From positions 122,514-186,513 of the forward strand of contig JAFSNK010000021.1 in assembly GCA_017447445.1 (NCBI GenBank): a stretch of DNA of 64,000 nt, in the 5' to 3' direction. The first letter of the stretch is position 1. Every line of letters starts with the position of its first letter. A model generated the notes under the pieces. It had not been told where the DNA came from, made no database searches, and worked only from the letters and a program-made list of their open reading frames with translations. This document shows positions 558-45,616 of this stretch, one piece after another. A program made the translations under genes and the position numbers. Source of the DNA: Clostridia bacterium. GTDB taxonomy: Bacteria > Bacillota > Clostridia > Oscillospirales > CAG-382.

Positions 558-3500
558 TCAGTTGACCGATATAACCACTTCCATCGGTTCGGACCAGTCA
601 AGGTATTCGCTGTACGAGAAAGTGAATCTTACTTCGCCGGTATAATCCTTTTCGGGATAGTAATCGAACGAGCCGTCGTCGTTCACGCTCACGCTACCGT
701 GATCCGCGGCGATCTCCACGCGCATCTTGCGCATCACGCCGTCATCCGTAAAATTGAATTCGCCGTGGAACGGAACGTTCTTTTCGGATTTGTATTTTTC
801 CAGTTTGATCTTATCGGGGACCGTCTTAAGTTCCTGCTTTATGAAATGATACGTGCTGTCGTAAACGGTACGTCCCATATAGGTGTCGGAATTCGCCGCA
901 TCGTAATAGATCATACCGCCCTGATAGTACATATGTACGGCGTCCTTCATATACCCGTATTCTGTGCCGTAGCTTAGATACGCCATATATTTATCGAAGA
1001 ACAGCTCGTTGAACAGAGCTTCGTCGCAGATCTCGATCTCGATGCCCATATTGTAAAGCGCGGTAAGCTTTGCGCAGCTTATGAGGTTGGTTATCGGGGT
1101 GTGCGCTTTGAACACGTAGTTCGGCTGCATGCAGGCGATATCGAACCCGTACTGATCCCACGCGTCGTACCCCGGCGCGGTGAAATACGGGATCCAGTAG
1201 AAGGACTTCCCTACGCTGTGCGCCTTGTCGGCTACGGCGTTCATCAACTCTTTCGCGTTGGGATCTTTAAAGGTTATGTCCTCGTTCATCCAGTAATAGC
1301 CGACAAGCTTAAGGTTTTTGTAATTCGCTTCGGCAAACCGCTTTTCGCATTCATCTATGAACCAGTCGATGACCTTAACGCGGTTTTCGTAGACCGTAAG
1401 GTCTTCCGAAACTCCGTCGCCGTCTATATCGCCGAAGTTCGTGCGCTCCCAGCTCGGATACATAACGGTAAGCGTTACCTTATATTGGAAATCCTCGGGC
1501 AGCTTAAGCGCTTCTTTCACTTTTCCCGCGGCGGTCTCGAGAGCGTTCATATTGGATTTCTGGTCGTCAAACACGTCGACCATATACCAGTTCATATCGC
1601 CCTTTGTAACGTCCGCATAGGTCTTGTTTCCGGTGGGAAGCGAACCGGGCAGGAAGAGGAAGCTGTCGAACATAACGTCCTTAATATTCCCGTCTTTGTC
1701 GACATACGCGAGGTACGGGATAAGATGCTCTTCTTTATATTTTCTTTCCGGGGTGTTGTAAAGCAATACAAGATCGGTCAGACCGTCGAGAATATCCGCG
1801 GAAGGCGCCATACGCTCGCCCGAATAAACGTTGTAGGGCTCGAATCCCGCGCTTGCGAGCGCGGCGGCGCCGCCGAGCGATTTTGTGCCGTATACCTCGA
1901 ATTCATCTGCGCCCGCCCAGCCGTTAACGCCGAATTCGAACGCAACGTACCTCGCGCAGACGCTTCTGCCGAGATCGAGCTCGCGCTTGATCACCTGGCT
2001 GCCGGCGCCGGAAAGGTCTATCGTTCCGCAGTTATACCAGTTCTTCGCGTCTTCGGACAGCAACACGTTTACAGTCCCCGGTGCGTGGACAGCCCAATCC
2101 GGGAAATCCACGAAGCTCACGGTAAAGCTACGCACCGCGCTTACGTGTCCGAGGTCGAAATAGATCTTTCTGCCGGTGCCGCTCCAGAATTTAAAGAACC
2201 TGCCGTTGTGGATATCCGTATTCGGCGAATACTCGCCGTCGGTAAGCACCGGGCTGGTGATCGGGGTGTTGTTGTGGTCGCTGTATACTCCGGGATCGGA
2301 AAGCGCGCTTATCTGCGGATAAATACCTTTAATAAGGTTTTCCGTGTTTCCGGAAGCGTCCGGCCACGCGCCGGTATCGGTCTCGTCAAGCTTCACGTCG
2401 GGATAAAGCAGCGAGTCCTGATATTCGCGGTAGGCGTAGACCGCGCATTCTTCAATAAGCGCCGTCTTCGTATCGCGGGCGTAAACCGTCAACTCTATAT
2501 ATCTCGCGCTCACCGCGCCGTTCAGCGGAAGCACAAACGAATACGCGCCAATACTTTTAGTCGCCGACGGGAAGATATTGCCGAGCACGGTCGCGTTTTT
2601 ATCCTTGTCGAGCGCTACGACGCCGACAGCGGCGGGAAGGAAAGTACCCACGGCTGCGTTTGTGTAGCATTTTACTTCGACGGTCGCCACGTCGTTTACG
2701 GTCTCGCCCAGATCTATCGTTATCTTAACGTTCTGATTGCCTTCGAATCCTACCCAGGTGCCGCCTTCGTACACGCCGGAATAACGTCCGTCCGTAAGCA
2801 TCTCGTTTTTCTCGTCCGGGAAGTTCTTGTCCAGCTTGCCGTCTATTTTATAACTCTTGTTGCGTGAAACGAGCACTGGGAAAAGAGTGCGGTCGATAGC
2901 GGTCGTGCTGACCGGCGATCTCGGCGCGCCTATTTCGGAGTATACCTCCATTATCTGTTCGGCGAACGCGCTGTTGATATCGCTGCCCTCCACGTCGGCG
3001 ATGACCATCGCTTCGTCGAGGAACAGCCAGTAGCTCGAACCGCGAACGGAAAACCTTACGTATCTCGCGGCGACGTAGCTTTTAAGAGCGACGCTCGCTT
3101 CCTGGCGCTTGCCTTCCTCGAACTTGGCTCTCTTAAGCGTAACGGCTTTGCTCCAGTTCTCTCCGTCTTCGGAATACTGCGCCTTTACGTAGGAGGGAAT
3201 GTTTATCCCCGCCTTTGTGGTTGCGAGATACCCGAGCTTGAACATATAGATCTTATCGCAGACGCTGCCGAGGTCGATCTCTATCGTGAGCTCCTGGGCG
3301 CTCACCGCGTAGCCGCTCAACGATTCGTCGAAGTAGTTGTCGCTTTCCCCGTCAAGAAGTATTCCGTCGGTAAGCTCCGTACCGTAGGTATCGGGATAGG
3401 TGCCCTCATGCGGTTCCACGGATTTTTTATATGCGCATCCGGCCGAAATGACCGTCTGATACGCGCCTTCTCTTACAGACGTCGGCGAAGGCCCGTCGGG

Positions 3501-3650
3501 ATCAGAAGTTTCTCCTCCGGAAACGTTCCCTCCGGATTCCGCTGCTGATTGTTCGCCGGATTCGCCGCCGTCTGCGGGGCCGTTTTTGCAGGAGATCAAA
3601 AACGCCGGAAGCAGCAAGAGAACGGCGAGTAATAAAGCGATCTTTTTCAT
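558..3650 (-). CDS. Large lipoprotein: ~3 discoidin/F5-8C-like repeats + DUF4855-like domain + C-terminal Ig/Big_9-like module
   Basis: Lipobox LISC; three LTDG...IDLG/FDLG...ARY repeats; GYYWMNE, ACMQPNY, GIEIE motifs; HGSVSVNDDGSFDYYP at C-terminus. Confidence 0.75.
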   Translation of the reverse strand: MKKIALLLAVLLLLPAFLISCKNGPADGGESGEQSAAESGGNVSGGETSDPDGPSPTSVREGAYQTVISAGCAYKKSVEPHEGTYPDTYGTELTDGILLDGESDNYFDESLSGYAVSAQELTIEIDLGSVCDKIYMFKLGYLATTKAGINIPSYVKAQYSEDGENWSKAVTLKRAKFEEGKRQEASVALKSYVAARYVRFSVRGSSYWLFLDEAMVIADVEGSDINSAFAEQIMEVYSEIGAPRSPVSTTAIDRTLFPVLVSRNKSYKIDGKLDKNFPDEKNEMLTDGRYSGVYEGGTWVGFEGNQNVKITIDLGETVNDVATVEVKCYTNAAVGTFLPAAVGVVALDKDKNATVLGNIFPSATKSIGAYSFVLPLNGAVSARYIELTVYARDTKTALIEECAVYAYREYQDSLLYPDVKLDETDTGAWPDASGNTENLIKGIYPQISALSDPGVYSDHNNTPITSPVLTDGEYSPNTDIHNGRFFKFWSGTGRKIYFDLGHVSAVRSFTVSFVDFPDWAVHAPGTVNVLLSEDAKNWYNCGTIDLSGAGSQVIKRELDLGRSVCARYVAFEFGVNGWAGADEFEVYGTKSLGGAAALASAGFEPYNVYSGERMAPSADILDGLTDLVLLYNTPERKYKEEHLIPYLAYVDKDGNIKDVMFDSFLFLPGSLPTGNKTYADVTKGDMNWYMVDVFDDQKSNMNALETAAGKVKEALKLPEDFQYKVTLTVMYPSWERTNFGDIDGDGVSEDLTVYENRVKVIDWFIDECEKRFAEANYKNLKLVGYYWMNEDITFKDPNAKELMNAVADKAHSVGKSFYWIPYFTAPGYDAWDQYGFDIACMQPNYVFKAHTPITNLISCAKLTALYNMGIEIEICDEALFNELFFDKYMAYLSYGTEYGYMKDAVHMYYQGGMIYYDAANSDTYMGRTVYDSTYHFIKQELKTVPDKIKLEKYKSEKNVPFHGEFNFTDDGVMRKMRVEIAADHGSVSVNDDGSFDYYPEKDYTGEVRFTFSYSEYLDWSEPMEVVISVN

Positions 3651-5553: not shown

Positions 5554-5778
5554 TCATACGTTTTCTTCGAGATAAGCGGCGACGTCGCCCACGGTAAGAA
5601 GACCGGGAAGCGCCGTTTCGTCGAACACGACGTTGAATCTTTCTTCGCAGAGGACCACGAGATCCGCGAGTTCAAGCGAGTTGAATCCAAGGTCGTTCAT
5701 CAATTCCGCGTCAGGGTTGATCAGATCGGCATTGATATCCATTTCTTCAACGAGCAGCTCTTTAAGTTTTGAATACAT
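5554..5778 (-). CDS. Acyl carrier protein
   Basis: Small acidic protein, DLGFNSLE pantetheine-site motif; start set at MYSKL. Confidence 0.85.
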   Translation of the reverse strand: MYSKLKELLVEEMDINADLINPDAELMNDLGFNSLELADLVVLCEERFNVVFDETALPGLLTVGDVAAYLEENV

Positions 5779-5796
5779 ATGTAGTTTCCCCACTCC

Positions 5797-7509
5797 TTAA
5801 GATAACTTATATCGTATTATTTTTTGCGTAGTTGTTTTTTCGAACTCGCTCTTTTTGAGCTCGATATTGCGCACCTGCTTGAATATCGGGAGCTTTTTGT
5901 TTATCCCCGCGACGCGTGCGCGTATGCAGTCGACTATCTCATCCTCGGACTTGCCCTTGAATTTATCGAAATCGGGGTAAATAAGCGCGGTAAGCACGAC
6001 TTCGCCGCCCTCTTTCGTCCTTCCGACGACGACGCACTCTTTGATTTCCTCGATCTTTTCGAGATATTCCTCTATCTCCTCCGGGTAAACGTTCTTGCCG
6101 TTCTGCAGAACGATAATGTTCTTTTTGCGCCCGGTGATGAAGATATATCCCTTTTCGTTAACGTAGCCGAAATCGCCGGTCTTGAAATAGCCCTCTTCGG
6201 TGAAAGAAGCGACAGTCGCTTCCTCGCTGTTATAATAGCCGATCATAACGTTGCGGCCTTTAACGCAAATCTCGCCGATCTCGCCGCATGAAAGCTCGTA
6301 TTCGTTGCCGCTTTCGTCGGTATCTATTATTTTTACCTTGCTGCCGGGTATCGGCATTCCGACGCAGGCGGGATCGAGCGTTACAAGCGGATTTACCGCG
6401 ACAAGCGGGGCGCATTCGGTAATACCGTACCCCTGCGAGACCTGGATGCCTATATCCGCGAACCAGTTGATCGTATCGGCGTCTATCGCGGCGCCGCCGA
6501 CGATTATATCCTTTAATCTGCCGCCGAGCGGAGCCCTTATCTTGGAAAACAGGAGCTTGCGGGTATCCAGCCCGATCTTTCCTATCAGGCGCGAAGTTTT
6601 GACACCGGCGTTCACGAGCTTTTCGAGTTTGCGCTTTTTGATCTCTTCCTGTATCTTCTTGCGTATCGTCACGACGAACAGCGGGACCAGCACCATGGCG
6701 GTCGGCTGGAACAAAGCGACGTTCTTCATGAAATACTTCAAGCTGTTGTTGATGCAAATGGTGAGCCCCAGACGAAGCGCAGTTAACTGCCCGCAGGACG
6801 TCTCGTAAGTATGGTGCATGGGAAGCACGCTCAACAGCACCGTATCCGGCGAAAAGCAGATCATATTAGAAGCGGCGTAGATGTTTTCGAGCAGGTTGTC
6901 TTCCGAAAGCATAACTCCCTTGCTCGTTCCGGTGGTACCGGAAGTGAATATAAGCGCCGACATTTTGTTTTTGTCGAACCGTATCGTCCTGAAATGATTG
7001 TCGTCTGTATCGGCGCGCGCGGTGAGCTCGGAGAAATAACGTATGCGTTTATCGGACCCGCCTTCTTCGGGGCTGCCGTCGAACGAAATGATGTATTTCA
7101 ATCCGGGCAGATCCATCGACATTACGGCCGAAATATATTTATCCGAGCAGATAACGGCTTCCGCGCCGGAATAATTTATAAAGTTTTCGACCTGCGCGGG
7201 CATAAGCTCTTTATCGAGAGGAACGATAACGTTGCCGCTGCTGATGCAGGAGCAATACGCGATTATCCATTCGGGGCGGTTTTCCGCAAGCAGCGCTATC
7301 TTTGTTTTGGAAAGCCCCAGGTTAAGAATACTTTCGCCGAACGCTTTGAAAAGCGCGTATACGCGCTTGTACGACATTTCGAGTATATTGTTGTTCTTGT
7401 CGAAATATTTATAGGCGATCTTGTCGCCGTTGTTTATCGAAGCGTCGCGCAGGACGGCGCGTATGCTTTCCGGTCTTTCCAGTTTTTCTTCTATAACGAC
7501 GTTTTTCAT
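5797..7509 (-). CDS. Long-chain fatty acid-CoA/ACP ligase (AMP-binding)
   Basis: FTSGTTGTSKG, QGYGITE, FKTGD, NGKNVYPEEIE; start may be 7524. Confidence 0.88.
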   Translation of the reverse strand: MKNVVIEEKLERPESIRAVLRDASINNGDKIAYKYFDKNNNILEMSYKRVYALFKAFGESILNLGLSKTKIALLAENRPEWIIAYCSCISSGNVIVPLDKELMPAQVENFINYSGAEAVICSDKYISAVMSMDLPGLKYIISFDGSPEEGGSDKRIRYFSELTARADTDDNHFRTIRFDKNKMSALIFTSGTTGTSKGVMLSEDNLLENIYAASNMICFSPDTVLLSVLPMHHTYETSCGQLTALRLGLTICINNSLKYFMKNVALFQPTAMVLVPLFVVTIRKKIQEEIKKRKLEKLVNAGVKTSRLIGKIGLDTRKLLFSKIRAPLGGRLKDIIVGGAAIDADTINWFADIGIQVSQGYGITECAPLVAVNPLVTLDPACVGMPIPGSKVKIIDTDESGNEYELSCGEIGEICVKGRNVMIGYYNSEEATVASFTEEGYFKTGDFGYVNEKGYIFITGRKKNIIVLQNGKNVYPEEIEEYLEKIEEIKECVVVGRTKEGGEVVLTALIYPDFDKFKGKSEDEIVDCIRARVAGINKKLPIFKQVRNIELKKSEFEKTTTQKIIRYKLS

Positions 7510-7718
7510 TAATTCACATCCCATTCCTTATAGAATTATACTTATTCTCGCCCCGTTGTCAAGTATGAATCGCAAAAAAACGAAATACGGCGAAAAATAC
7601 AAAACAAAATTCAACGGATACCATTGTAGTTTCGTATTGTTAACTCTTGATTAACTATCCGCGAATAAAAAAACTTTCGCGTGAAAGAATACTAACGAGA
7701 AAACGCAAAGAGGTAGAA

Positions 7719-8162: not shown

Positions 8163-9161
8163 ATGCGCGACGCTCTTCTGGAATTCAGCAAGACCTTTCT
8201 GAAAGCTGAATGCTCCACCGTAGGCAAAAAGGAATACGAAGGACCGCTTTCGGATTATTTCGACTCCTGGGAAAAGGATGAATATTTCGGCTGCAGGAGC
8301 TTCGACGAGGCGGAAAGCGAAATGTCGCGCAGGAATATAAACTTCCTGCTTTCCAAGGCGCGGTATTCATACGGTGATATCGACGTTATCTGCGGCGGCG
8401 ACCTGCTGAACCAGTGCGTCGCGACAAGCTTTGCCGCTTCCGGCACGGGGATACCGTATTTCGGTCTTTACGGCGCGTGCAGTACGATAGCGGAAGCTTT
8501 TATATGCTCGGCGCTGTTTATCGAAACCGGAGGCGCGCACAACGCGGTGGGCTTCGCTTCATCGCATTTTTGCTCCGCCGAACGGCAGTACCGCTTCCCT
8601 CTTGAATACGGCAGTACGCGCACTCCCACGGCGCAGAACACGGTTACGGGGTCGGGGGCGTATCTGTTCACTTCGGACAGATGCGGCGTTCGCGTTAAAA
8701 ACGCGCTGATAGGCAGGATAATCGACAAAGAGATAACCGACGCCAACAATATGGGCGCGGCAATGGCGGGCGCGGCGGCGGACACCGTTTTGCGTTACCG
8801 CGCCGCCTCGAAAGACGAAATGGATTCGTTCGACTATATAATAACGGGAGATCTCGGACGGGAAGGACACGAAATAGCCGCGGAGCTGCTGCGCAGGCAG
8901 GGATTCACCGCGGGGAGCAGATTCGTGGACTGCGGTATGCTCATATACGACGCCGAAAAGCAGGACGTGCATTCGGGAGGTTCCGGAGCGGGATGTATGT
9001 CTTCGGTGCTCGGTGCGTATTTTATAAGCAGGATGCGGCGTGGCGAGATAAAAAGGATACTCGCGGTAGGTACCGGAGCGCTGCTCAACCCGAACAGCGT
9101 CCTGCAGAAAAAGACCATACCCGCCGTCGCACACGCGGTATGCTTTGAGAGGGAGGATTGA
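8163..9161 (+). CDS. spoVAD: Stage V sporulation protein AD (DPA-binding)
   Basis: GDLLNQC, GLYGACST, AERQYRFPLEYG, NNMGAAMA, GGSGAGC. Confidence 0.93.
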   Translation: MRDALLEFSKTFLKAECSTVGKKEYEGPLSDYFDSWEKDEYFGCRSFDEAESEMSRRNINFLLSKARYSYGDIDVICGGDLLNQCVATSFAASGTGIPYFGLYGACSTIAEAFICSALFIETGGAHNAVGFASSHFCSAERQYRFPLEYGSTRTPTAQNTVTGSGAYLFTSDRCGVRVKNALIGRIIDKEITDANNMGAAMAGAAADTVLRYRAASKDEMDSFDYIITGDLGREGHEIAAELLRRQGFTAGSRFVDCGMLIYDAEKQDVHSGGSGAGCMSSVLGAYFISRMRRGEIKRILAVGTGALLNPNSVLQKKTIPAVAHAVCFERED

Positions 9162-9517
9162 ATATGCGTTTTCTGCGGGCGTTTTTGATCGGCGGAGCGC
9201 TTTGCGTTCCCGCGCAGATACTCATAGATAAAACAAAGCTTATGAATTCGCGCATACTCACCGGGTACGTCGTTTTGGGAGTAATACTCGGCGGCGCGGG
9301 TATTTACGGAGCTTTTGCCGATTTCGCGGGCAGCGGCGCTTACGTACCGCTTTTCGGATTCGGGAACACGCTGGCGAAAGGCGTTAAGGAAGCGATAGAC
9401 AGCGACGGCGCCATCGGGATCCTCACGGGAGGTCTTACGGGAGCCGCCGCGGGGATAACCGCCGCGACTTTTTTAAGCGTTTTGTGGTCGCTTATCTTCA
9501 AAAGTCGACAAAAATAA
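9158..9517 (+). CDS. spoVAE: Stage V sporulation protein AE(b)
   Basis: AFLIGGALC..AQILIDKT; GAYVPLFGFG; follows spoVAD. Confidence 0.88.
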   Translation: MNMRFLRAFLIGGALCVPAQILIDKTKLMNSRILTGYVVLGVILGGAGIYGAFADFAGSGAYVPLFGFGNTLAKGVKEAIDSDGAIGILTGGLTGAAAGITAATFLSVLWSLIFKSRQK

Positions 9518-9538
9518 TACAAAAACGCGCATTTTCTA

Positions 9539-9567
9539 TTGACCAAATCCCTACGATGTTTTATAAT
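9539..9567 (+). promoter_or_regulatory. Sigma-A promoter of MMPL gene
   Basis: TTGACC-17-TATAAT. Confidence 0.7.
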
Positions 9568-9598
9568 CTTTTCATCAGCAGCATATCAGAGGAAAGTT

Positions 9599-11896
9599 AT
9601 GAACGCAAAAAATAAAAACGGCGGCGCCCTCGAACGGTTTACGACGGCTCTCGCTTCCTACATAATAAAATACAGATTTATCATTTTTGCGCTGTTCGCC
9701 GCGGCGGCGGTATACTGCGCGCTTTCGGCGGGCAAAGTCCGCGTCAACAACGAGCTCACCGCCTTCCTCCCGCCCGAATCGGAAACGCGGCGCGGGATAT
9801 CCGTTATGAGCGACGAATTCATAACGTACGCCTCCGCAAGCGTGATGCTCGAAGACGTCACCGCGGATGAGGCAAAAAGCGCGGCGGACGGCATCGCCTC
9901 GCTTGCACACGTGGCGGAAGCGGATTTCGACGAAACTCCGGCGCATTACCGCGGCGGTTCCGCGCTTATAAACGTATCGTTCGACTGCGCTGAAACGAAC
10001 GCCGCCGTTTCCGAAACGATGGACGAGATCAAACAGATCGTCGGAAAATACAAGTATTACACTTCTTCTTCGTTTCTGCATAACTACGGAAAACAGCTTG
10101 CCGACGAAATGATAGTCGTAATGCTCATCGCCGTGATCGTTATCCTGGCAGTACTGCTGTTCACTTCCAGAAGCTATTTCGAAGTTATCATTTTCGGGAT
10201 AGCGTTCGTATTCGCCGCGTTGCTCAACCTCGGGACGAATTACTGGCTGGGCGAGATCTCGACGATAACGAATACCGTTGCGGTCATACTCCAGCTTGCG
10301 CTTGCGATAGATTACGCTATAATATTCGCGCACAGATATCAGGACGAGCTGCTTAAAGGCGGCGGCGAACGCGAAGCGCTCACAAGTTCCCTTGCAAAAT
10401 CGATGGTCGAAATTTCTTCCTCGTCTCTTACCACGATATCCGGTCTCGCCGCGCTCACGCTTATGCAGTTCCGGCTAGGATACGACCTCGGCACCGTGCT
10501 TGCGAAAGGCATAGTTTGCAGTATGCTCACGGTGTTCCTTCTTATGCCCGGACTTATATCGCTGTTCCCGCGGATACTCAAAAAGACCGCGCACCGCAAG
10601 CTATTGCCGAATATCGAAAAATGGGGCGGGATCTTAATGAACTCAAAATACGCGTTCGTTATTCTCTTCGCGCTGCTGCTCCCGTTCGCGGTTTATTTCT
10701 CTCAGAACGCGGTATACGCGTTTTCCGACCAGTCCGTAAGCGAGATAGTCACATCCGAGCGCCGCACCGCTTTACATAAGATAAACGATACTTTCTCGCC
10801 AAACACCTCGATAGCCGTTATAGTGCCGAAGGGCGATTATAAAAAAGAAAAAAACGTGCTCGATTCGGTCTCGTCGCTTGAAGGCGTAAAAAGCGCGCTC
10901 GGCATAGCAAGCATAGAATACGCTCCCGGAAAACCGATAACGGAAGAATACGGCAGCGCCGAGTTCGGCGGAATGCTCGGAATATCCGAGGAATACTCTT
11001 CCCTGCTTTTCGCCTCGTATGCGACGAGCAAGGGCGACTATTCGTCCTTCGCTTCACCGGACTACAAAGTGCCGCTTGTCGATATGGCTTCTTATCTTTT
11101 CGGAATAATCGACGAAGGGCTTGTGAATCTTACGCCCGAGCAGCGCGCGGTCCTTGCGGAAGTCCGCCCGCAGCTTCAGCGCGCGACCGACCAGCTTTGC
11201 GGTACCGCCCACGACAGACTGATAGTGTCCTCTTCCTACGCGGTGGAAAGCGCAGAAGCGTCCGCGCTGGTGGAAAGCATACGCGCCGCCGCGGCAAAAG
11301 AGTATCCCGCCGAGGAGATAATAATTGCCGGCGACGTTACGAGCGCCCGCGACCTGCGCAATTCCTATAAGAGCGATTCGGTGCTGATACGCATACTCAC
11401 TATCGCTTTCGTGTTTATAATACTGATGTTCACGTTCCGCAGCTTTGCCGGAGCGGCGATACTTGTATTCGTGATTCAAGGCAGTATCTGGATAAACTTT
11501 TCATTTACTTACCTGTTCGGTTCGCGTCCCTCGTTCGTTACCGATATGATAGTCTCCGCCATACAGATGGGCGCGACCATAGACTACGCGATAGTGCTTT
11601 TCAGCCGCTACAAGGCGCTTCGCGAAAAATACGAAAAGAAGCGTGCAATGTCGCTTGCCGTGAACGAAAGTTTCCCCACGGTCATCACGTCCGGCGCTAT
11701 AATGGCCGCCGCGGGACTGCTTATAGCGTTCCGTATAAGCGACGTATACGTCGGTCATATAGGGCTCGCCGTCGGGCGCGGCGCGATAATTTCCGTTATA
11801 CTTGTGCTGACCGTTCTTCCTCAATTGCTCGTACTGCTGGATAAAGCGATAGAAAAAACCACTATCCGGTTCAAACGCCGCGAAAAAACAGAATAG
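9599..11896 (+). CDS. MMPL/RND family transporter
   Basis: Two TM bundles with LAIDYAII and GATIDYAIV motifs; start 9599 with GAGG RBS. Confidence 0.88.
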   Translation: MNAKNKNGGALERFTTALASYIIKYRFIIFALFAAAAVYCALSAGKVRVNNELTAFLPPESETRRGISVMSDEFITYASASVMLEDVTADEAKSAADGIASLAHVAEADFDETPAHYRGGSALINVSFDCAETNAAVSETMDEIKQIVGKYKYYTSSSFLHNYGKQLADEMIVVMLIAVIVILAVLLFTSRSYFEVIIFGIAFVFAALLNLGTNYWLGEISTITNTVAVILQLALAIDYAIIFAHRYQDELLKGGGEREALTSSLAKSMVEISSSSLTTISGLAALTLMQFRLGYDLGTVLAKGIVCSMLTVFLLMPGLISLFPRILKKTAHRKLLPNIEKWGGILMNSKYAFVILFALLLPFAVYFSQNAVYAFSDQSVSEIVTSERRTALHKINDTFSPNTSIAVIVPKGDYKKEKNVLDSVSSLEGVKSALGIASIEYAPGKPITEEYGSAEFGGMLGISEEYSSLLFASYATSKGDYSSFASPDYKVPLVDMASYLFGIIDEGLVNLTPEQRAVLAEVRPQLQRATDQLCGTAHDRLIVSSSYAVESAEASALVESIRAAAAKEYPAEEIIIAGDVTSARDLRNSYKSDSVLIRILTIAFVFIILMFTFRSFAGAAILVFVIQGSIWINFSFTYLFGSRPSFVTDMIVSAIQMGATIDYAIVLFSRYKALREKYEKKRAMSLAVNESFPTVITSGAIMAAAGLLIAFRISDVYVGHIGLAVGRGAIISVILVLTVLPQLLVLLDKAIEKTTIRFKRREKTE

Positions 11897-39042: not shown

Positions 39043-39071
39043 TTGCAACGTCTGATATTTAATGTTATAAT
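39043..39071 (+). promoter_or_regulatory. Sigma-A promoter of MBOAT operon
   Basis: TTGCAA-17-TATAAT with TG extension. Confidence 0.7.
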
Positions 39072-39100: not shown

Positions 39101-40513
39101 ATGCTTTTTGCCGATCTTTTATTCGTTTTCGTTTTCTTTACTCTGTGTATCGCGTGCTACTTCATAGCGCCGAACATAAAGATAAAGAACATAGTGCTGG
39201 TGGTGTTTTCCCTGCTGTTCTATGCGTGGGGGGAACCGAAGCTCGTGTTCCTGTTCGTGTTCAGCGCGCTTGTGAACTATCTGCTTGCGCTGCAGATAGA
39301 TAAGCGGCGCGGCACAAAATGGAGCAAGGGTTTTCTGGCGATCGCGCTCGTATACGACATAGGGATGCTGTTCGTGTTCAAATACACCGATTTTATGATA
39401 AACAACATAAACGGCATATTCGGCACTTCCATCCCGCTTTCCAAAATAGCGCTTCCGCTCGGCATCAGTTTTTATACCTTCCAGATAATCTCCTATATGA
39501 TCGACGTTTACTGGGAAAAGGTGGCTGTGCAGCGCAACTTCGGCAAGCTTCTTATGTATATCTCGCTGTTCCCTCAGCTTGTCGCCGGTCCCATAGTTCG
39601 CTATGCGACCATCGCCGAGGAGATAGATGACCGGCGCACCACCGTCCAGGACGCGTACGACGGGTTCAAGCGGCTGATCATCGGTCTTACGAAAAAGGTT
39701 TTGCTTGCAAACAACCTCAACCTGATAGTCGAAGCGTGCTTCGGAAAGGATATCGCGCAGGCGACGGTGCTGGGCACCTGGATAGGCGTTATCGCCTATT
39801 CTATGCAGGTGTATTTCGACTTTTCGGGTTATTCGGATATGGCGATAGGTATGGGCAGGATATTCGGCTTCCATTTCGACGAAAACTTCAAGTATCCGTT
39901 CATATGCCGTTCAATAACCGAATTCTGGCAAAGGTGGCATATCTCGCTGGGCAGCTTCTTCCGCGATTACCTGCTTCCGGTGCCGATATTCGGCAAACGC
40001 CGCCAGACGCTTTCGCTGTTTTTGGTGTGGTTCACCACCGGTCTGTGGCACGGCGCGAGTTGGAACTACGTTATCTGGGGCTTGTATTTCGGGCTGTTCC
40101 TTTATATCGAAACGAAGATCGGCAAAAAACGGCTTAAAAAGGTGCCCGACGTACTGATGCATATTTACAACAAGATAGTTATCATAGTCGGGTTCGGAAT
40201 ATTCTATTTCACCGATTTCGGTATGCTCGGCAACTTTTTCAAAAACCTTGTCGGCGCGAACGGGAACGCTTTCGTCGACGGAAAGACGGTGCAGGCGCTT
40301 CAGGATCATCTGTTCATAATAATCATCGCGGTGATCGCCTGCTTCCCCGTCGCGAAGCTTCTGAAAAAGCTGTTCGACAAGACGAACCCGGCGGTGCAGT
40401 CCGCGGCGTATATATGCCTTACCCTCTTCCTTGTCGCGGCGCTGTTCACCGACACGGTGATACTCGTAAGAACGTTCAGTTCCAACAACCCGTTCCTTTA
40501 CTGGAAGTTTTAG
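39101..40513 (+). CDS. MBOAT O-acyltransferase (AlgI/PatA/DltB type)
   Basis: LPLGISFYTFQ, FDFSGYSDMAIG, FWQRWHISL, GLWHG, C-terminal NPFLYWKF. Confidence 0.93.
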   Translation: MLFADLLFVFVFFTLCIACYFIAPNIKIKNIVLVVFSLLFYAWGEPKLVFLFVFSALVNYLLALQIDKRRGTKWSKGFLAIALVYDIGMLFVFKYTDFMINNINGIFGTSIPLSKIALPLGISFYTFQIISYMIDVYWEKVAVQRNFGKLLMYISLFPQLVAGPIVRYATIAEEIDDRRTTVQDAYDGFKRLIIGLTKKVLLANNLNLIVEACFGKDIAQATVLGTWIGVIAYSMQVYFDFSGYSDMAIGMGRIFGFHFDENFKYPFICRSITEFWQRWHISLGSFFRDYLLPVPIFGKRRQTLSLFLVWFTTGLWHGASWNYVIWGLYFGLFLYIETKIGKKRLKKVPDVLMHIYNKIVIIVGFGIFYFTDFGMLGNFFKNLVGANGNAFVDGKTVQALQDHLFIIIIAVIACFPVAKLLKKLFDKTNPAVQSAAYICLTLFLVAALFTDTVILVRTFSSNNPFLYWKF

Positions 40514-40522
40514 GAGGCGGAC

Positions 40523-41890
40523 ATGAAAGAAAAAGTTCTTAAGATTTGCCTTATCCTCCTCGTGCTCGTGTTTGCTTTTATGTTCGTGTTCACGGTGTTC
40601 TTCAAGCATACGGAGGAATCGAATTACGACAAACTTTCCGAATGGCCGGAATTGAACGCGGACAGCTATTTCTCCAGCGAATATTTCAAAGGCGTTATGC
40701 ACTGGTTTACCGACCACATCCCCGGGCGCGATACGTTTATCGATTACGAAGCGCACGTCCGCGCGCTGTACGGGCTCCCGCGGGACGAGGAAGTGATCAA
40801 CCGCGGTGGCAACGACGTCACGGACGAATCGTCCGCGGCGGAATCCTCGGAAGCGGTCTCCGATCCCGTCGAATCGTCGGAAGCGCCCTCCAAGGACCCG
40901 GTGGAATTCAGCGAGGTCTCGTTTGAAGACACCTCCGGCGAGGTGAGCGAATTCTCGCAGCCGGACAGCGATCCGGAAGGCGACGTCGAGCTTTGCAACA
41001 CCGTGCTCGTTATCGGCCACCGCGGTCTGGAAGTGTTCTACGGCAACCTGCCCGGCGCCGAACGTTACGCCGGGATACTCAACTCGCTTGCCGAAAAGCT
41101 GCCCGAAAACGTTACGCTTTATTCGATGGTCATACCCAAGGCGGGCGCTTACTATATCTGGCAGTCGAAGCAGTTCGGTTATACCGCCAACGCGAATAAA
41201 GAGAATATCGACAGGATATCGGAACTGCTTTCCGACAAGGTGGTGGACGTGAACGTTTACAATACGCTGGGCGTTCACTCGGACGAACCGATCTATTACC
41301 GCACCGACCACCACTGGACGGCGCTCGGCTGCTATTACGGCACGCAGGTGTTCGCGCAGAAAGCCGGAGTTACCTGGCACGACCTTTCGGATTACGAAAA
41401 GCACACCCGCGAAGGATACGTGGGCACGCTTTACACGTTTTCGAACAACAGTCCGAAGCTGGGCGATTACCCGGAGGATTTCGATTATTACGTTCCAAAG
41501 ACCTCCTATACCGCCGAATACGGCAACAAAGAAGACCTTTCCGGCTTGTTCCCGCACGAGCAGGGGCTTTATTGGGACATTGCCGACAGCCAGAGAAGCG
41601 GCTGGTACTTCATGTTCATGTACGGCGATATCTTTTCGGCAAGGATAAGATCCGATACCTGCAAAAACGGACGCAAGCTGCTGGTTGTTAAAGACAGCTA
41701 CGGCAACCCGGTGCCGCAGTATCTGGTGGACAGCTTTGAAGAAATATACGTTGTGGATATGCGCGAATACAAACGCACCATAACCGAAACTGTTGAAACA
41801 TACGGAATTACCGACGTACTTGTCGCAGAATGTTCATTCTCGGCGGTCGGAGGAATAATACTTGATAAATTAGAAGGAATCTGCAAATGA
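40523..41890 (+). CDS. DHHW family (AlgJ/AlgX-like) membrane-anchored protein
   Basis: YYRTDHHWTALG, VVKDSYGN, VVDMR. Confidence 0.88.
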   Translation: MKEKVLKICLILLVLVFAFMFVFTVFFKHTEESNYDKLSEWPELNADSYFSSEYFKGVMHWFTDHIPGRDTFIDYEAHVRALYGLPRDEEVINRGGNDVTDESSAAESSEAVSDPVESSEAPSKDPVEFSEVSFEDTSGEVSEFSQPDSDPEGDVELCNTVLVIGHRGLEVFYGNLPGAERYAGILNSLAEKLPENVTLYSMVIPKAGAYYIWQSKQFGYTANANKENIDRISELLSDKVVDVNVYNTLGVHSDEPIYYRTDHHWTALGCYYGTQVFAQKAGVTWHDLSDYEKHTREGYVGTLYTFSNNSPKLGDYPEDFDYYVPKTSYTAEYGNKEDLSGLFPHEQGLYWDIADSQRSGWYFMFMYGDIFSARIRSDTCKNGRKLLVVKDSYGNPVPQYLVDSFEEIYVVDMREYKRTITETVETYGITDVLVAECSFSAVGGIILDKLEGICK

Positions 41891-43260
41891 ACGTTAAAAA
41901 AGCATTATCACTGATTATCGCGCTGTTTACCCTGCTTTCTTTCGCCGCCTGCGATTTTTCGGGCGAGAAGAACAATTCAGTCCCCGAATCGGGGATCAGC
42001 ACTCCCGCTTCTTCAAAAGCGGAAAGCACGGTTTCGCAAGACGAAAGCACCGGCCCGAACGTTATCGAAAAAACGTTTACCGGAGTAAACGTGCTTCTTG
42101 ACGGCACCGACGCGCTCGAGGATTCGGGCTACACGCTCGACAGCGTGTTCGACCGGCAGATAGACGTTACCGTCAGAGGCGCGGAAGAAGACGTCAACTC
42201 GCTTATGCTTGCCGATATTTCCGCGTATATAGACGTTGCTTCCGTCGCGGACGAAGGCGAAGCGGACTTTCTTATCTACGTAAACGTGCCGGATAAAGTC
42301 GATTTCGTTTCCGCTTCCGAAAGCACCGTTACCGTAAAGATAGTAAAACGCGAAGTCGAGATCGTTCCGGTCCAGGACGGCGACGCTTATATGCAGGGCG
42401 GCATAATCATTACCGGAAAACGCGGGATGGAACCGTTCGGAGGCACCGCGGCTTACGGCGCTGCCACCGCGAAAACGATAAACAACTTTAAGAAGGCGAT
42501 AGGCGACGGCGTTAACGTTTACGTGCTTGCCGAACCGCTTGCTTCCGCGTTCTACGCGCCGGAAAAATACGCGTACGCGATCAAGAACCACAAGGATTGC
42601 TTCGAAGGTCTGCGCGACGCGCTGGAAGACGTTAAATACGTCGACGCGCTCGGCGCTTTAAGTCTTCACATCGACGAAGATATTTATTCCCGCACCGACC
42701 ACCACTGGAACGCGCTGGGCGCCTATTACGCCTGCAAAGAGTTTGCAAAAACGGCGGGCACTCCGTTCGACGATCTTTCCACCTTCACGGTGCAGAGCGA
42801 AAGCGGTATCGTCGGATCGCTTTACGCGTTCTCCAAAGCTCAGGTGCTTAAAGACAACCCAGATACCTTCGTTTGGTACATACCCACGCGCAACCACAGC
42901 GTCAGCTATTACAACGTAAACAACTTTTCCGGCCCGATAATGTCCGATAAAACGCTGTTCTCCAACGCAAGCGGGTATATCAAATTCATCTACGGAGATT
43001 CCTACACCACCGATATAATCACCGACGTAGGCAACGGCAGAAGACTTCTCGTTTTCAAGGACAGCTACGGCAACGCGCTGGCTCCCTTCCTCGTTTCGAT
43101 GTTCGACGAAATAATCATCGCCGACTTCCGCGAGTTCCAGGTGGATACACGCGCGTTCATAAAAGAGCACGGCATAACCGACGTGTGCTTTGCGCTGTGC
43201 GCGTTCGCGACCGTCAACGCGGGCAGCTACGTCAACAAACTCGTTGCAAACATGAAATAA
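41887..43260 (+). CDS. DHHW family lipoprotein with YbbR-like domain
   Basis: Lipobox FAAC; VTVRG..DISAYID..VNVP..VTVKI; RTDHHWNALG, KDSYGN. Confidence 0.82.
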   Translation: MNVKKALSLIIALFTLLSFAACDFSGEKNNSVPESGISTPASSKAESTVSQDESTGPNVIEKTFTGVNVLLDGTDALEDSGYTLDSVFDRQIDVTVRGAEEDVNSLMLADISAYIDVASVADEGEADFLIYVNVPDKVDFVSASESTVTVKIVKREVEIVPVQDGDAYMQGGIIITGKRGMEPFGGTAAYGAATAKTINNFKKAIGDGVNVYVLAEPLASAFYAPEKYAYAIKNHKDCFEGLRDALEDVKYVDALGALSLHIDEDIYSRTDHHWNALGAYYACKEFAKTAGTPFDDLSTFTVQSESGIVGSLYAFSKAQVLKDNPDTFVWYIPTRNHSVSYYNVNNFSGPIMSDKTLFSNASGYIKFIYGDSYTTDIITDVGNGRRLLVFKDSYGNALAPFLVSMFDEIIIADFREFQVDTRAFIKEHGITDVCFALCAFATVNAGSYVNKLVANMK

Positions 43261-43272
43261 GGAGTTGATTCT

Positions 43273-45054
43273 ATGGCCTCGGCAGGATATCCTTTCGATC
43301 CCGCGGAAATAACCGAAAAGCGCAAACGCATCAAGCGCGAGCTTCTTGCCGACGGCACGAAGCGGATAAAAAAGAATATCGCGGTGCTCGGCGGATCCAC
43401 GACAAACGATATCGTTTCCGCGTTGGAGGTATTCCTTCTGCGCGAAGGTATAGAGCCCGCGTTTTACCAGTCGGAATACAACCGCTTCTGGCAGGACGCG
43501 ATGTTCGAAAACGCCGAACTGCGCGAATTCAAGCCAGACGTGATATTTATACACACGTCCTACCGTAATATCGCCGCGTTCCTTCCCGCGGCTTCGGCTT
43601 CCAAAGAGGATTGCGAAAGCGCGCTTAACGAACGGTTCGATTACTACCGCAGGATGTGGGACCGCCTGCTTTCGGAATACGCCTGCCCTGTCGTTCAGAA
43701 CAACTTCGAACTGCCGCCCTACCGCATAATGGGCAACCGCGATTGCTTCGATAACGCCGGGAGCGTGCGCTTTATAAATACGCTAAACGGTATGTTCGCC
43801 GACTACGCGCGCGAGCATCAGGGGTTCTATATAAACGATATAAACTACGTTTCCTCCTGCGTGGGGCTCGACAGATGGCACGACGAAAAGGCGTGGTGTA
43901 TGTATAAATACTGCTGCGCGGTGGACGTTATACCCTATCTTTCTTTCAACGTTTCGCGCATAATAAAATCGCTGTTCGGCAGGAACAAAAAGGTGCTTGC
44001 GCTCGACCTGGACAACACGCTTTGGGGCGGCGTTGTCGGCGACGACGGCGTGGAGGGGATCGAAATAGGCGAAGAGACCGGGACCGCCGAATGCTTCAAG
44101 GGTTTTCAGACTTACCTGAAGAAGCAAAAAGACATCGGCATAATGCTTACTGTCGCTTCCAAGAACGACCACGAAAACGCCGTTGCGGGGCTGAACCACC
44201 CGGAAGGCGTACTGCGTCCGGACGATTTTATAGTGATAAAAGCCAACTGGGAGACAAAGGACCGCAACCTTGCCGCCACGGCGAAGGAGATGGATCTCGG
44301 TATAGATTCCTTTGTATTCCTGGACGACAACCCCACCGAGCGCGCGCTCGTTTCGCGCAGTCTGCCCGCGGTTTCCGTCCCGCCGATGGATTCTCCGGAC
44401 GAATATATACGCACCGTTGATAAAAACGGGTATTTCGAAGTAACGAATTTTTCCGCGGACGACCTTAAACGAAACGATATGTATAAGGCGAACGTAAAAC
44501 GCGCGGAACAGATGACGGAGTTCACCGATTATCACGAATACCTGTTAAGTCTGGATATGCGCGCGGAGATACTTCCCTTCTCGCCCGTGTATATGCAGCG
44601 CATATCGCAGTTGACGAACAAATCCAACCAGTTCAACCTTACGACGCGGCGCTATACCCAGCCGGAGATCGAATCAGTCGCCGCGGACGGAAATCATATT
44701 ACGCTTTACGGCAAGCTGGAGGATACCTTCGGCGACAACGGAGTGGTCTCCGTCGTGATAGGCGCCGTCGACGGCGCGGTCTGCGATATCGAGCTGTGGC
44801 TTATGAGCTGCCGCGTGCTTAAAAAGAACATGGAGTACGCTATGCTCGATACCCTTGCCGGCGAATGCGCAAAGCGCGGGATCACGGAGCTTGTGGGGCA
44901 CTACTACCCCACCGCGAAAAACGGAATGGTAAAAGAGCTTTACTCCGATTTCGGTTTCACCAAGACTTCGGAGGACGAAAACGGCAATACCGAATGGAGA
45001 TTAAAGCTTGAAGGTTATAAGAACCGAAACGACGTAATAAAAATCAATCAATAA
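43273..45054 (+). CDS. FkbH-like HAD-IIIC glyceryl transferase/phosphatase
   Basis: DLDNTLWGG, ASKND, FLDDNP, KSNQFNLTT, LMSCRV. Confidence 0.92.
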   Translation: MASAGYPFDPAEITEKRKRIKRELLADGTKRIKKNIAVLGGSTTNDIVSALEVFLLREGIEPAFYQSEYNRFWQDAMFENAELREFKPDVIFIHTSYRNIAAFLPAASASKEDCESALNERFDYYRRMWDRLLSEYACPVVQNNFELPPYRIMGNRDCFDNAGSVRFINTLNGMFADYAREHQGFYINDINYVSSCVGLDRWHDEKAWCMYKYCCAVDVIPYLSFNVSRIIKSLFGRNKKVLALDLDNTLWGGVVGDDGVEGIEIGEETGTAECFKGFQTYLKKQKDIGIMLTVASKNDHENAVAGLNHPEGVLRPDDFIVIKANWETKDRNLAATAKEMDLGIDSFVFLDDNPTERALVSRSLPAVSVPPMDSPDEYIRTVDKNGYFEVTNFSADDLKRNDMYKANVKRAEQMTEFTDYHEYLLSLDMRAEILPFSPVYMQRISQLTNKSNQFNLTTRRYTQPEIESVAADGNHITLYGKLEDTFGDNGVVSVVIGAVDGAVCDIELWLMSCRVLKKNMEYAMLDTLAGECAKRGITELVGHYYPTAKNGMVKELYSDFGFTKTSEDENGNTEWRLKLEGYKNRNDVIKINQ

Positions 45055-45066
45055 AGGAGTACCGCC

Positions 45067-45303
45067 ATGGCAGATAACATCAACGAAAGATTAAACGAGG
45101 TTTTCAGAAACGTATTTGACGACGATTCCATTAACGTAACGCGTGAAACCACCGCCGACGACATAGAGGATTGGGACAGTCTGGAGCACATCCGTCTTAT
45201 CGGCGCGGTGGAACGCGAATTCGGCGTGAGATTCACAATGAAAGAAGTAAGCACGATGAAAAACGTCGGCGAGATGATGGACATAATCGCCGAACGCGGA
45301 TAG
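45067..45303 (+). CDS. Acyl carrier protein
   Basis: DWDSLEH motif, acidic, 78 aa. Confidence 0.9.
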   Translation: MADNINERLNEVFRNVFDDDSINVTRETTADDIEDWDSLEHIRLIGAVEREFGVRFTMKEVSTMKNVGEMMDIIAERG

Positions 45304-45314
45304 AGGTAAAATAT

Positions 45315-45575
45315 ATGGAAAATACAAATCAATATATCTGCCAGTGCTGCGGTATGCCGCTTGGCGAAGAAACGTTCAGCAAAGAGCCGGACGGCAGCGT
45401 AAACAAAGAATACTGCAAGTGGTGCTATGCGGACGGAAAGTTCAGGTATTCGTCCATAGAACAGCTTATGGATTTTATCGTTCCGCACATGACGAACGAG
45501 AATTATTCCGAAGAACAGGTACGCGAATACTTCGGAAAACTGCTTCCCCAGCTTAAGCACTGGAAGCAACAGTAA
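45315..45575 (+). CDS. Zinc-ribbon protein (Zn_ribbon_2-like)
   Basis: CQCCGMP, YCKWCY, LPQLKHWK; GAGG RBS. Confidence 0.82.
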   Translation: MENTNQYICQCCGMPLGEETFSKEPDGSVNKEYCKWCYADGKFRYSSIEQLMDFIVPHMTNENYSEEQVREYFGKLLPQLKHWKQQ

Positions 45576-45585
45576 CGCGGAATAC

Positions 45586-45616
45586 AAAAAAGCCCGAAAA
45601 CGCTTCGGGCTTTTTT
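45586..45616. terminator. Bidirectional terminator
   Basis: AAAAAAGCCCGAA..TTCGGGCTTTTTT. Confidence 0.85.

Follow-up and report, generated by a model that had tools for sequence, protein, structure and literature searches.

What is an FkbH-like enzyme, accompanied by a dedicated acyl carrier protein (ACP), doing in one operon with a membrane-bound O-acyltransferase (MBOAT) plus two SGNH-type O-acyltransferases of the DHHW family? The question is raised by positions 39101-45575 of a 64,000-nucleotide stretch (hereafter, the window) of contig JAFSNK010000021.1, positions 122,514 to 186,513 of the forward strand, in the assembly GCA_017447445.1 of a Clostridia bacterium (Oscillospirales; CAG-382). 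An earlier note, made from the sequence of this DNA alone, had read these genes as a dlt-like pathway in which FkbH takes the place of DltA. We consider it fairly probable that the operon encodes a carrier-protein-dependent MBOAT/SGNH-type relay that esterifies an extracytoplasmic polymer of the cell envelope. The group attached would be a small hydroxy-acyl, most probably glyceryl (2,3-dihydroxypropanoyl), as the homology of the loading enzyme to FkbH predicts.

The loader is encoded at 43273-45054 on the + strand, as are all the genes of the operon. This 593-aa protein is of the long form, with an FkbH N-terminal domain (FkbH_N, PF21211), a HAD phosphatase domain and a GNAT-fold domain carrying a cysteine, and matches TIGR01686 with 261.4 bits against a cut-off of 146.65, across profile positions 3-320 of 323. 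The solved structure PDB 3SLR matches residues 18-395 (E=5.8e-50). The DxDxT motif (D245, D247, T249), S296, K323, D351, D352 and C513 within LMSCRV are invariant in 12 FkbH homologues of 58-100% identity; the SCR motif, to which the earlier note had drawn attention, is thus present and conserved. The same motifs, including an identical LMSCRV, are found in a 359-aa HAD-IIIC protein of 28% identity that belongs to an NRPS/PKS (non-ribosomal peptide synthetase/polyketide synthase) cluster on Bacillus thuringiensis pBMB400. The full-length architecture matches that of a Streptomyces gene (31.5% identity over 91% of the protein) that sits within a KSIII-FkbH-ACP-E2-hydrolase gene set, and this set is similar to one that PMC7489565 describes for tetronates under the name 'glycerate-utilisation operon'. 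In the AlphaFold model, the N-terminal and HAD domains match 3SLR, and the C-terminal domain matches GNAT folds (Foldseek E ~2e-6). The acyl-accepting role of the cysteine in FkbH-type enzymes is said to be known from work on OzmB. The intact HAD phosphatase argues for a phosphorylated acyl substrate. The ACP gene (45067-45303) starts 12 nt 3' of the loader gene and encodes a dedicated carrier of 78 aa that passes the PF00550 cut-off (22.6 versus 20.8 bits), with the phosphopantetheine (Ppant) site at Ser38 and the W36-D37-S38 motif invariant in 17 orthologues.

The MBOAT (39101-40513; 470 aa) scores 74.2 bits against PF03062 (gathering cut-off 27; E=1.5e-20), and its closest matches among the solved structures are DltB entries (6BUG/8JEM, E=3.6e-24). 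It is no DltB orthologue, scoring 145.6 bits against TIGR04091, for which the equivalog cut-off is 375. Nevertheless, His280 and His317 align with DltB His289 and His336, which are named as active residues in PMC11035591, and both, together with Y467, are invariant across 17 MBOAT orthologues. Y467 belongs to the C-terminal FLYWKF hexapeptide that the earlier note had singled out; FLYxxF is present in all 19 displayed orthologues with the gene order of the window (type A, below), and the Tyr is retained in all 74 MBOATs compared. In PatA, the Tyr of a C-terminal hexapeptide of this kind (FIYANF in Neisseria gonorrhoeae) becomes auto-acetylated, and the acyl group is passed from it to the SGNH partner, whereas in the Dlt system the acyl-Tyr motif is carried by a separate microprotein, DltX, rather than by DltB (PMC12148441). 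The earlier note had attributed a C-terminal Tyr to DltB, AlgI and PatA alike; this stands for the PatA/AlgI arrangement, which is the one seen here, and fails for Dlt.

Two proteins of the DHHW family are encoded next to the MBOAT. DHHW1 (40523-41890; 455 aa) is an AlgX/PatB1-like SGNH-type O-acyltransferase with a hydrophobic N-terminal helix as its membrane anchor and matches PF14286 with 190.4 bits (E=8e-56; cut-off 25). Among solved structures, it matches the uncharacterised 4NZK (E=6.2e-57) and, at E=6.2e-11, PatB1 of Bacillus cereus (5V8D). DHHW2 (41887-43260; 457 aa) combines a YbbR-like domain (PF07949, E=1.2e-7) with the second DHHW domain (108.5 bits, E=6e-31). Its N-terminus, ...LLSFAAC, resembles what we take to be a lipobox, so DHHW2 is a probable lipoprotein. 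Among 31 family members, D262-H263-H264-W265, S392 and D412 of DHHW1 are invariant, and D271-H272-H273-W274 and S393 of DHHW2 are conserved; an Asp is likewise invariant in both DHHW proteins. We presume that the D-H-H-W motif and the Ser supply the catalytic triad.

With these components, the relay would run as follows. By analogy with the biochemistry of its family, the FkbH-like enzyme would take 1,3-bisphosphoglycerate onto Cys513 of the GNAT-fold domain, the HAD domain would remove the 3-phosphate, and the glyceryl group would pass to the Ppant arm on Ser38 of the ACP. Glyceryl-ACP is predicted, from a structural model and from homology, to dock on the cytoplasmic face of the MBOAT at a DltC-like site. 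His280 and His317 of the MBOAT could then move the acyl group to the protein's own Tyr467 at the outer face, as suggested by PatA and by DltB/DltX. From the acyl-Tyr, it would be handed to the catalytic Ser of DHHW1 and/or DHHW2 and on to hydroxyls of a wall polymer, in the manner of AlgJ/AlgX and PatB1. AlgJ and AlgX are the two outside transferases of alginate acetylation, and the order in which the two DHHW proteins might act is proposed by analogy with them. A secondary wall polysaccharide, a teichoic-like polymer and peptidoglycan are the candidate acceptors.

Loader, carrier and MBOAT are strongly co-conserved. A search of species-representative genomes with FkbH yielded at least 598 related stretches, of which the best 80 (52-66% identical) were examined. 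In 76 of these 80 loci, an ACP gene occurs no more than 4 kb from FkbH; the MBOAT is found on the same strand within 5 kb in 58 and within 10 kb in 61. In the 48 loci whose flanks both extend to 5 kb or more, the respective counts for the MBOAT are 34 and 37. Three gene orders are apparent: MBOAT-DHHW(-DHHW)-FkbH-ACP, as in the window (type A); FkbH-ACP-(tailoring genes)-MBOAT-SGNH-like protein (type B); and FkbH-ACP-MBOAT-DHHW (type C). Three loci (L021, L035, L059) read DHHW-DHHW-FkbH-ACP, with no MBOAT within 10 kb and with housekeeping genes upstream, that for peptidyl-tRNA hydrolase being an example.

Twenty further regions were compared, comprising 5 close relatives, 10 loci of an FkbH clade at 37% identity, and 5 homologues at 26-34%. 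The order MBOAT-DHHW-DHHW-FkbH-ACP is kept in all five close relatives. Both the ACP and the MBOAT are present in all ten loci of the 37% clade, in the type C order in eight of these; of the other two, L103, a truncated locus, reads FkbH-ACP-MBOAT, and the remaining one belongs to a pair, L108 and L109, in two genomes of the same genus (G140 and G026). In this pair, MBOAT-DHHW-DHHW-ACP is followed, after 3.6 kb, by an FkbH of the 37% clade, and it looks as if the loader has been replaced. Genes for a GDSL/fn3 protein and for a PHP protein, both on the opposite strand, occupy the 3.6-kb spacer. The five homologues at 26-34% identity have neither an ACP nor an MBOAT nearby.

A similar linkage is found far from the Clostridia, on pSymB of Sinorhizobium meliloti (CP140948.1, 1057766-1063654), where VOC-MBOAT-409-aa protein-ACP-FkbH adjoins GT4 and capsule genes. 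The FkbH of this locus is 35% identical over 463 residues and reads SCRV, and FLYQGF is the C-terminal sequence of the MBOAT. No Pfam match was obtained for the 409-aa protein, whose annotation is 'TonB-dependent receptor'.

At the level of genomes, 69 of 151 members of the window's family have FkbH. Of 150 sampled from this family, 54 encode an MBOAT that shares 55% identity or more with that of the operon (paralogues reach at most 48%), and all 54 have an FkbH homologue, in 51 cases a close one and in 3 a member of the 37% clade. FkbH occurs without the type A MBOAT in 11 genomes, ten of which have a 37%-clade FkbH with an MBOAT type of its own; the eleventh is an 84%-complete genome in which FkbH lies at a contig start. 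The other 85 genomes have neither gene. The cassette is patchily distributed (34 of the 47 genomes of the genus; 10 of the 15 genera), and the FkbH and MBOAT genes have been gained and lost together, although related genomes are not independent. The possibility considered in the earlier note, that fkbH-acp is not co-conserved with MBOAT/DHHW, is rejected by these counts.

The second line of evidence concerns the contact between carrier and acyltransferase. In a modelled ACP-MBOAT complex, the interaction prediction score from aligned errors (ipSAE) was 0.65, 0.63 and 0.65 in three runs, against 0.00 for the best control; this mark is attained by 58 of 80 solved complexes and by 2 of 110 mismatched pairs. 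At least 93% of the contacts agree between runs, and the partner pLDDT (predicted local distance difference test) is 84 or higher. The model brings ACP residues 34-46, including Ser38, and 58-63 into contact with MBOAT residues 138, 140, 273, 288-306 and 334-343. MBOAT 292-300 aligns with DltB 304-317, the region of the DltC-binding helix HC with Lys312 and Arg317 (PMC11035591). The co-folding that the earlier note had proposed as a check thus yields a docked complex, and the model supports a likeness of the ACP site to the DltC site of DltB, as distinct from binding as such; because the DltB-DltC complex has already been solved, the docking pass may reflect that complex as learnt by the prediction program.

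The same surface includes a loop, MBOAT residues 291-306 (~39971-40018), that coincides with the DltC-binding site of DltB and differs between linked and unlinked MBOATs. After the first catalytic His, all nine MBOATs that do not adjoin FkbH have the motif P-[LIV]-G-G-[NSG]-[RK], in the form PLGG(N/S)R. The motif is found in only one of the 60 MBOATs that adjoin FkbH (type A, 0/23; type B, 1/26; type Bup, 0/3; type C, 0/7; S. meliloti, 0/1) and in none of five distal MBOATs, situated in extended type B clusters at a distance of 4.5-8 kb. An insertion of ~17-21 residues rich in Lys and Arg is present in the loop of types B and C. In an MBOAT tree, type A forms a clade (support of 100 in the Shimodaira-Hasegawa-like approximate likelihood ratio test, SH-aLRT) that is sister to type C (SH-aLRT 97), the unlinked paralogues from the genome of the window fall just outside A and C, and type B is a separate large clade. 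Clades being few, the independence of the loop signature is low, and we regard the loop as a lead, read from alignments, towards a marker that may distinguish ACP-fed from acyl-CoA-fed MBOATs.

The genome itself provides a third line. This assembly, 99.93% complete, encodes one FkbH, three MBOATs, six DHHW proteins with matches above the cut-off and one AcpS. Two other MBOAT-DHHW pairs (8696-11254 of the contig we denote C22, with FLYYIF; 86726-89260 of contig C33, with FLYAAF) have neither a carrier protein nor a loader, and the FkbH-linked pair can be contrasted with them within one genome. The whole genome gave no match to a condensation domain or to a ketoacyl-synthase domain (PF00109), the latter being detected in all 14 control genomes, so the absence of PKS/NRPS genes noted earlier for the operon holds genome-wide. 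Type II fatty-acid synthesis may be missing from this organism, which does have five carrier proteins and many AMP-binding enzymes. No DltD (PF04914) was detected in the genome, and no DltA above the cut-off, the best match to TIGR01734, away from the operon, scoring 122.1 against 559.85 bits. Together with the linkage, these negatives support the replacement of DltA by FkbH in a dlt-like pathway.

These observations bear on an alternative in which the MBOAT and DHHW proteins O-acetylate their target from acetyl-CoA, as PatA/PatB1 do, and FkbH-ACP feeds a separate cytoplasmic pathway, the association being incidental or regulatory. That the two other MBOAT-DHHW pairs of the genome need no carrier protein, that the C-terminal Tyr motif is common to all MBOATs compared, and that FkbH-ACP stands alone in 11 of the 48 well-flanked loci all speak for it. 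However, co-occurrence is complete in the 54 genomes, linkage persists through three gene orders and in S. meliloti, the genome has no condensing enzyme to use an acyl-ACP, the donor-site loop is altered only in linked MBOATs, and the docking model passes its controls. We consider an incidental association very unlikely.

Several points nevertheless weigh against a carrier-fed glyceryl relay. The compared genomes are kin and the loci were picked by FkbH, so the counts overstate independence. No MBOAT lies within 10 kb of FkbH in 19 of the 80 loci, and the 11 well-flanked ones among these imply that FkbH-ACP can stand apart from the MBOAT. The type A loop, PIFGKR, which resembles KVFKNR of DltB, keeps P..G.R and is a modest variant rather than a loss of the motif, and the MBOAT tree, a quick and unrooted one, gives no order of events. 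The FkbH model is mediocre, with a mean pLDDT of 71 and values below 50 at residues 248-270 and 383-397. The assignment of the acyl group rests on FkbH homologues from natural-product clusters, to which identity is 28-35%, and the polymers named above are candidate acceptors. The docking, too, may echo the solved DltB-DltC complex.

The low identity to the natural-product homologues also leaves room for the same relay with a group other than glycerate, in case this FkbH clade uses a different acyl phosphate or glyceryl-ACP is altered, for example to lactyl or pyruvoyl, by enzymes whose genes lie outside the operon. In other cassettes of the family, tailoring genes stand beside FkbH-ACP-MBOAT: among the 80 loci, MaoC dehydratases in 16, SDR in 8, VOC in 6, split transketolases in 8-9 and aldo-keto reductases in 6. 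By Pfam, these genes, and a small HAD gene likewise, are confined to loci outside the DHHW type; examples of type B, with tailoring genes between FkbH-ACP and the MBOAT, include L027, L034, L039, L049, L070, L080, L087 and others. Such genes suggest conversion of glyceryl on the carrier to other small acyl groups, such as lactyl, and the family therefore probably delivers more than one acyl group. In contrast, none of the 28 DHHW-type loci, this operon included, has a tailoring gene, and the HAD and Cys motifs of the loader are fully conserved, as the route through 3-phosphoglyceryl expects. For the operon of the window, a non-glycerate group appears unlikely, and glyceryl is the acyl group that we favour.

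A ~355-aa protein (cluster c4) follows the type B MBOATs. It was considered as a DHHW relative and rejected (hhalign probability 6%). It has sub-cut-off matches to GDSL (E=2.6e-5) and DltD (E=0.033) and SGNH-like block I and V motifs and, by these motifs, is best described as putatively 'SGNH-like', not DHHW.

As for the target, the relay could act on something other than a glycopolymer, for instance, the head group of a membrane lipid or a protein of the surface. The operon has no genes of polysaccharide synthesis at its flanks, the neighbours being genes for a BrkB-like protein, an aldolase and a GDSL hydrolase, and we know of no sugar-binding role of the YbbR domain, both of which would fit such a target. 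The solved homologue of DHHW1, PatB1, is named an O-acetyltransferase of B. cereus, which speaks for a glycopolymer instead, as does the grouping of MBOAT-SGNH pairs as polymer acylation systems, with alginate, cellulose, secondary wall polysaccharides and peptidoglycan as their substrates (PMC12148441). We judge a target of another kind quite improbable. Among the glycopolymers, lipoteichoic acid made by LtaS is an unlikely acceptor because the genome has no match to the LtaS-type domain PF00884; one TagF-like gene is present.

How does the esterification of an envelope polymer by this relay compare with the known systems? On the inside, the likeness is to Dlt: a carrier protein would supply the MBOAT from the cytoplasmic side, no solved structure matches the MBOAT better than DltB, the modelled ACP occupies the DltC site, and the acyl group would be relayed via an acyl-Tyr to an SGNH-type transferase, as described for Dlt. 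The differences from Dlt are equally clear. Where Dlt has an adenylating ligase, the operon has an FkbH (a HAD plus GNAT-fold Cys enzyme) as its loader; the group predicted to be transferred is a hydroxy acid instead of D-alanine; the MBOAT itself bears the Tyr hexapeptide, which in Dlt resides on the DltX microprotein; and the outside transferases are DHHW/AlgX-like instead of DltD (PF04914). On the outside, the operon resembles PatA/PatB, PatA1/PatB1 and AlgI/AlgJ/AlgX, with the F-x-Y-x-x-F shuttle fused to the MBOAT at its C-terminus and an AlgX/PatB1-like partner, and, in having two outside transferases, it recalls AlgJ and AlgX in particular. It departs from the PatA/AlgI type in that the ACP and loader are co-inherited with the MBOAT and in the loop after the first His, which differs from that of the unlinked paralogues. 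The operon is thus Dlt-like inside and PatA/PatB1- or AlgI/AlgJ/AlgX-like outside, and it belongs to neither system, given its carrier protein on the one hand and, on the other, the failure to find DltA, DltD or an equivalog-level score for DltB. According to a 2025 mechanistic paper, Dlt is the exception among MBOAT/SGNH pathways, the others having no carrier protein and drawing on acyl-CoA (PMC12148441); the ACP and loader in this MBOAT/SGNH cassette contradict the rule, as given there, that only Dlt has a carrier protein.

The loader, in its turn, shares with the FkbH glyceryl-S-ACP synthases (FkbH of FK520, the Mad7-type enzymes of tetronates, the homologue in the zwittermicin cluster) the TIGR01686 match, the DxDxT, SKN, DD and MSCRV motifs, the long-form architecture and an adjoining stand-alone ACP. 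Unlike for those synthases, there is no ketosynthase, condensation domain or FabH-like partner in the genome, and the user of the acyl-ACP would be the MBOAT relay, not an assembly line. The varlaxin proteins AerO, AerP and AerQ (A domain, PCP, MBOAT) are comparable in that a carrier protein and an MBOAT are proposed to cooperate, and FkbH domains occur within the same cyanobacterial aeruginosin clusters; there, however, the FkbH domain forms part of an NRPS module, and it is a small peptide that the MBOAT decorates, with no SGNH partner or envelope polymer involved (PMC10143770). These unrelated roles in aeruginosin-type clusters are the only case in which we found FkbH and MBOAT joined in the literature. 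Our search, which lay mostly outside subscription journals and supplementary files, found no published description of an FkbH-MBOAT envelope cassette, and the statement of the earlier note that no characterised example was known agrees with this for openly accessible texts.

Is the operon, then, a single curiosity? We see about even chances that it belongs to a large family of MBOAT relays supplied by carrier proteins, which would be the second such kind besides Dlt and would place hydroxy-acyl esters derived from glycolysis on envelope polymers: glyceryl here, and lactyl-type or other groups where MaoC, SDR, VOC and transketolase genes are present, with the ACP-fed MBOATs recognisable by the loop after the first catalytic His. 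The hosts of this proposed family are gut and rumen Clostridia, some bins labelled Bacteroidota, and S. meliloti. Envelope acylation, whether D-alanylation or O-acetylation, governs surface charge, resistance to lysozyme and antimicrobial peptides, phage adsorption and immune recognition, and the cassette leads us to predict that abundant anaerobes of the rumen and gut carry on their walls a new ester, neutral and with a diol. It is also a candidate genetic basis for glycerate-type substituents of glycans: on pseudaminic acid, glyceroyl occurs as an N-acyl group, the genes for which were reported to be unknown in 2017 (PMC5378307). Tractable hosts of the cassette include S. meliloti (on pSymB) and two cultured species, Ruminococcus flavefaciens 007c, whose locus (L071) has the architecture seen in the window, and Eisenbergiella tayi DSM 26961, whose locus (L055) is of type B; the loop signature may offer a way to tell ACP-fed from CoA-fed MBOATs.

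In its layout, the region 39101-45575 consists of six + strand genes, delineated by open reading frame and domain analysis, and these are as tightly packed as the earlier note had stated, with gaps of +9, -4, +12, +12 and +11 nt along the operon. That note had described an operon of five genes; all five are confirmed, and the end coordinate that it gave takes in a sixth, unnamed gene, which encodes a Zn_ribbon_2 protein of 86 aa (45315-45575, with ATG 45315 as the most likely start; PF12674, E=3.2e-28). The Zn-ribbon gene was considered as a component of the system and rejected, given no tblastn match in the 80 and 20 related loci; it lies within the transcription unit and outside the conserved cassette. 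The strongest intrinsic-terminator-like hairpin of the region (45586-45616, +; a 13-pair stem with a 5-nt loop, followed by a T run) begins 10 nt past the final stop codon. The best promoter-like site on the + strand of the region, TTGCAA-17 nt-TATAAT with an extended -10 TG (39043-39071; 10 of 12 matches), is located ~30 nt 5' of the MBOAT start. Such sites occur at chance level (7 found versus 7.1 expected from shuffles), so, of the single promoter and single terminator described earlier, the terminator has its candidate in this hairpin, and a single promoter for the operon is plausible. No structured RNA or riboswitch was found at the operon, a search with the Rfam gathering thresholds having returned only three tRNAs elsewhere in the window.

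Contigs from a gut metatranscriptome run touch the operon in two places: one of 191 nt lies within DHHW1 (40853-41043; 1 mismatch) and another, of 334 nt, extends from the ACP gene into the Zn-ribbon gene (45056-45389; 0 mismatches), the rest of the operon being uncovered. Given that contigs from RNA libraries do not demonstrate transcription, these are only a hint of it.

At least half of the sampled words of the stretch were found in fourteen sequencing runs. Nine studies contributed the runs that contain any of it; this DNA may stem from four runs of a single study, and most of the other runs with matches are labelled bovine gut metagenome. In three DNA runs, the ratio of synonymous to non-synonymous changes is 8:1 in the MBOAT, 2:0 in FkbH and 1:0 in the ACP, and, in the same runs, 5:4 and 5:6 in the outside proteins DHHW1 and DHHW2, respectively, all of these numbers being small. 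Synonymous changes thus prevail in the cytoplasmic and membrane components, which speaks for the proposed relay, and the picture is mixed for the outside proteins.

Elsewhere in the window, at 5554-7524 (- strand), the gene for a 575-aa AMP-binding enzyme directly precedes that for a 79-aa carrier protein, beside a two-component system; enzyme and carrier may form an acyl-ACP synthetase pair. A similar ligase-carrier pair is encoded on the contig denoted C29 (82729-84465), ~6 kb from the sole TagF-like gene. Finally, the 1030-aa protein encoded at 558-3650 (- strand), with DUF4855, F5/8 type C and cadherin-like domains, is probably a surface protein that binds or degrades glycans.

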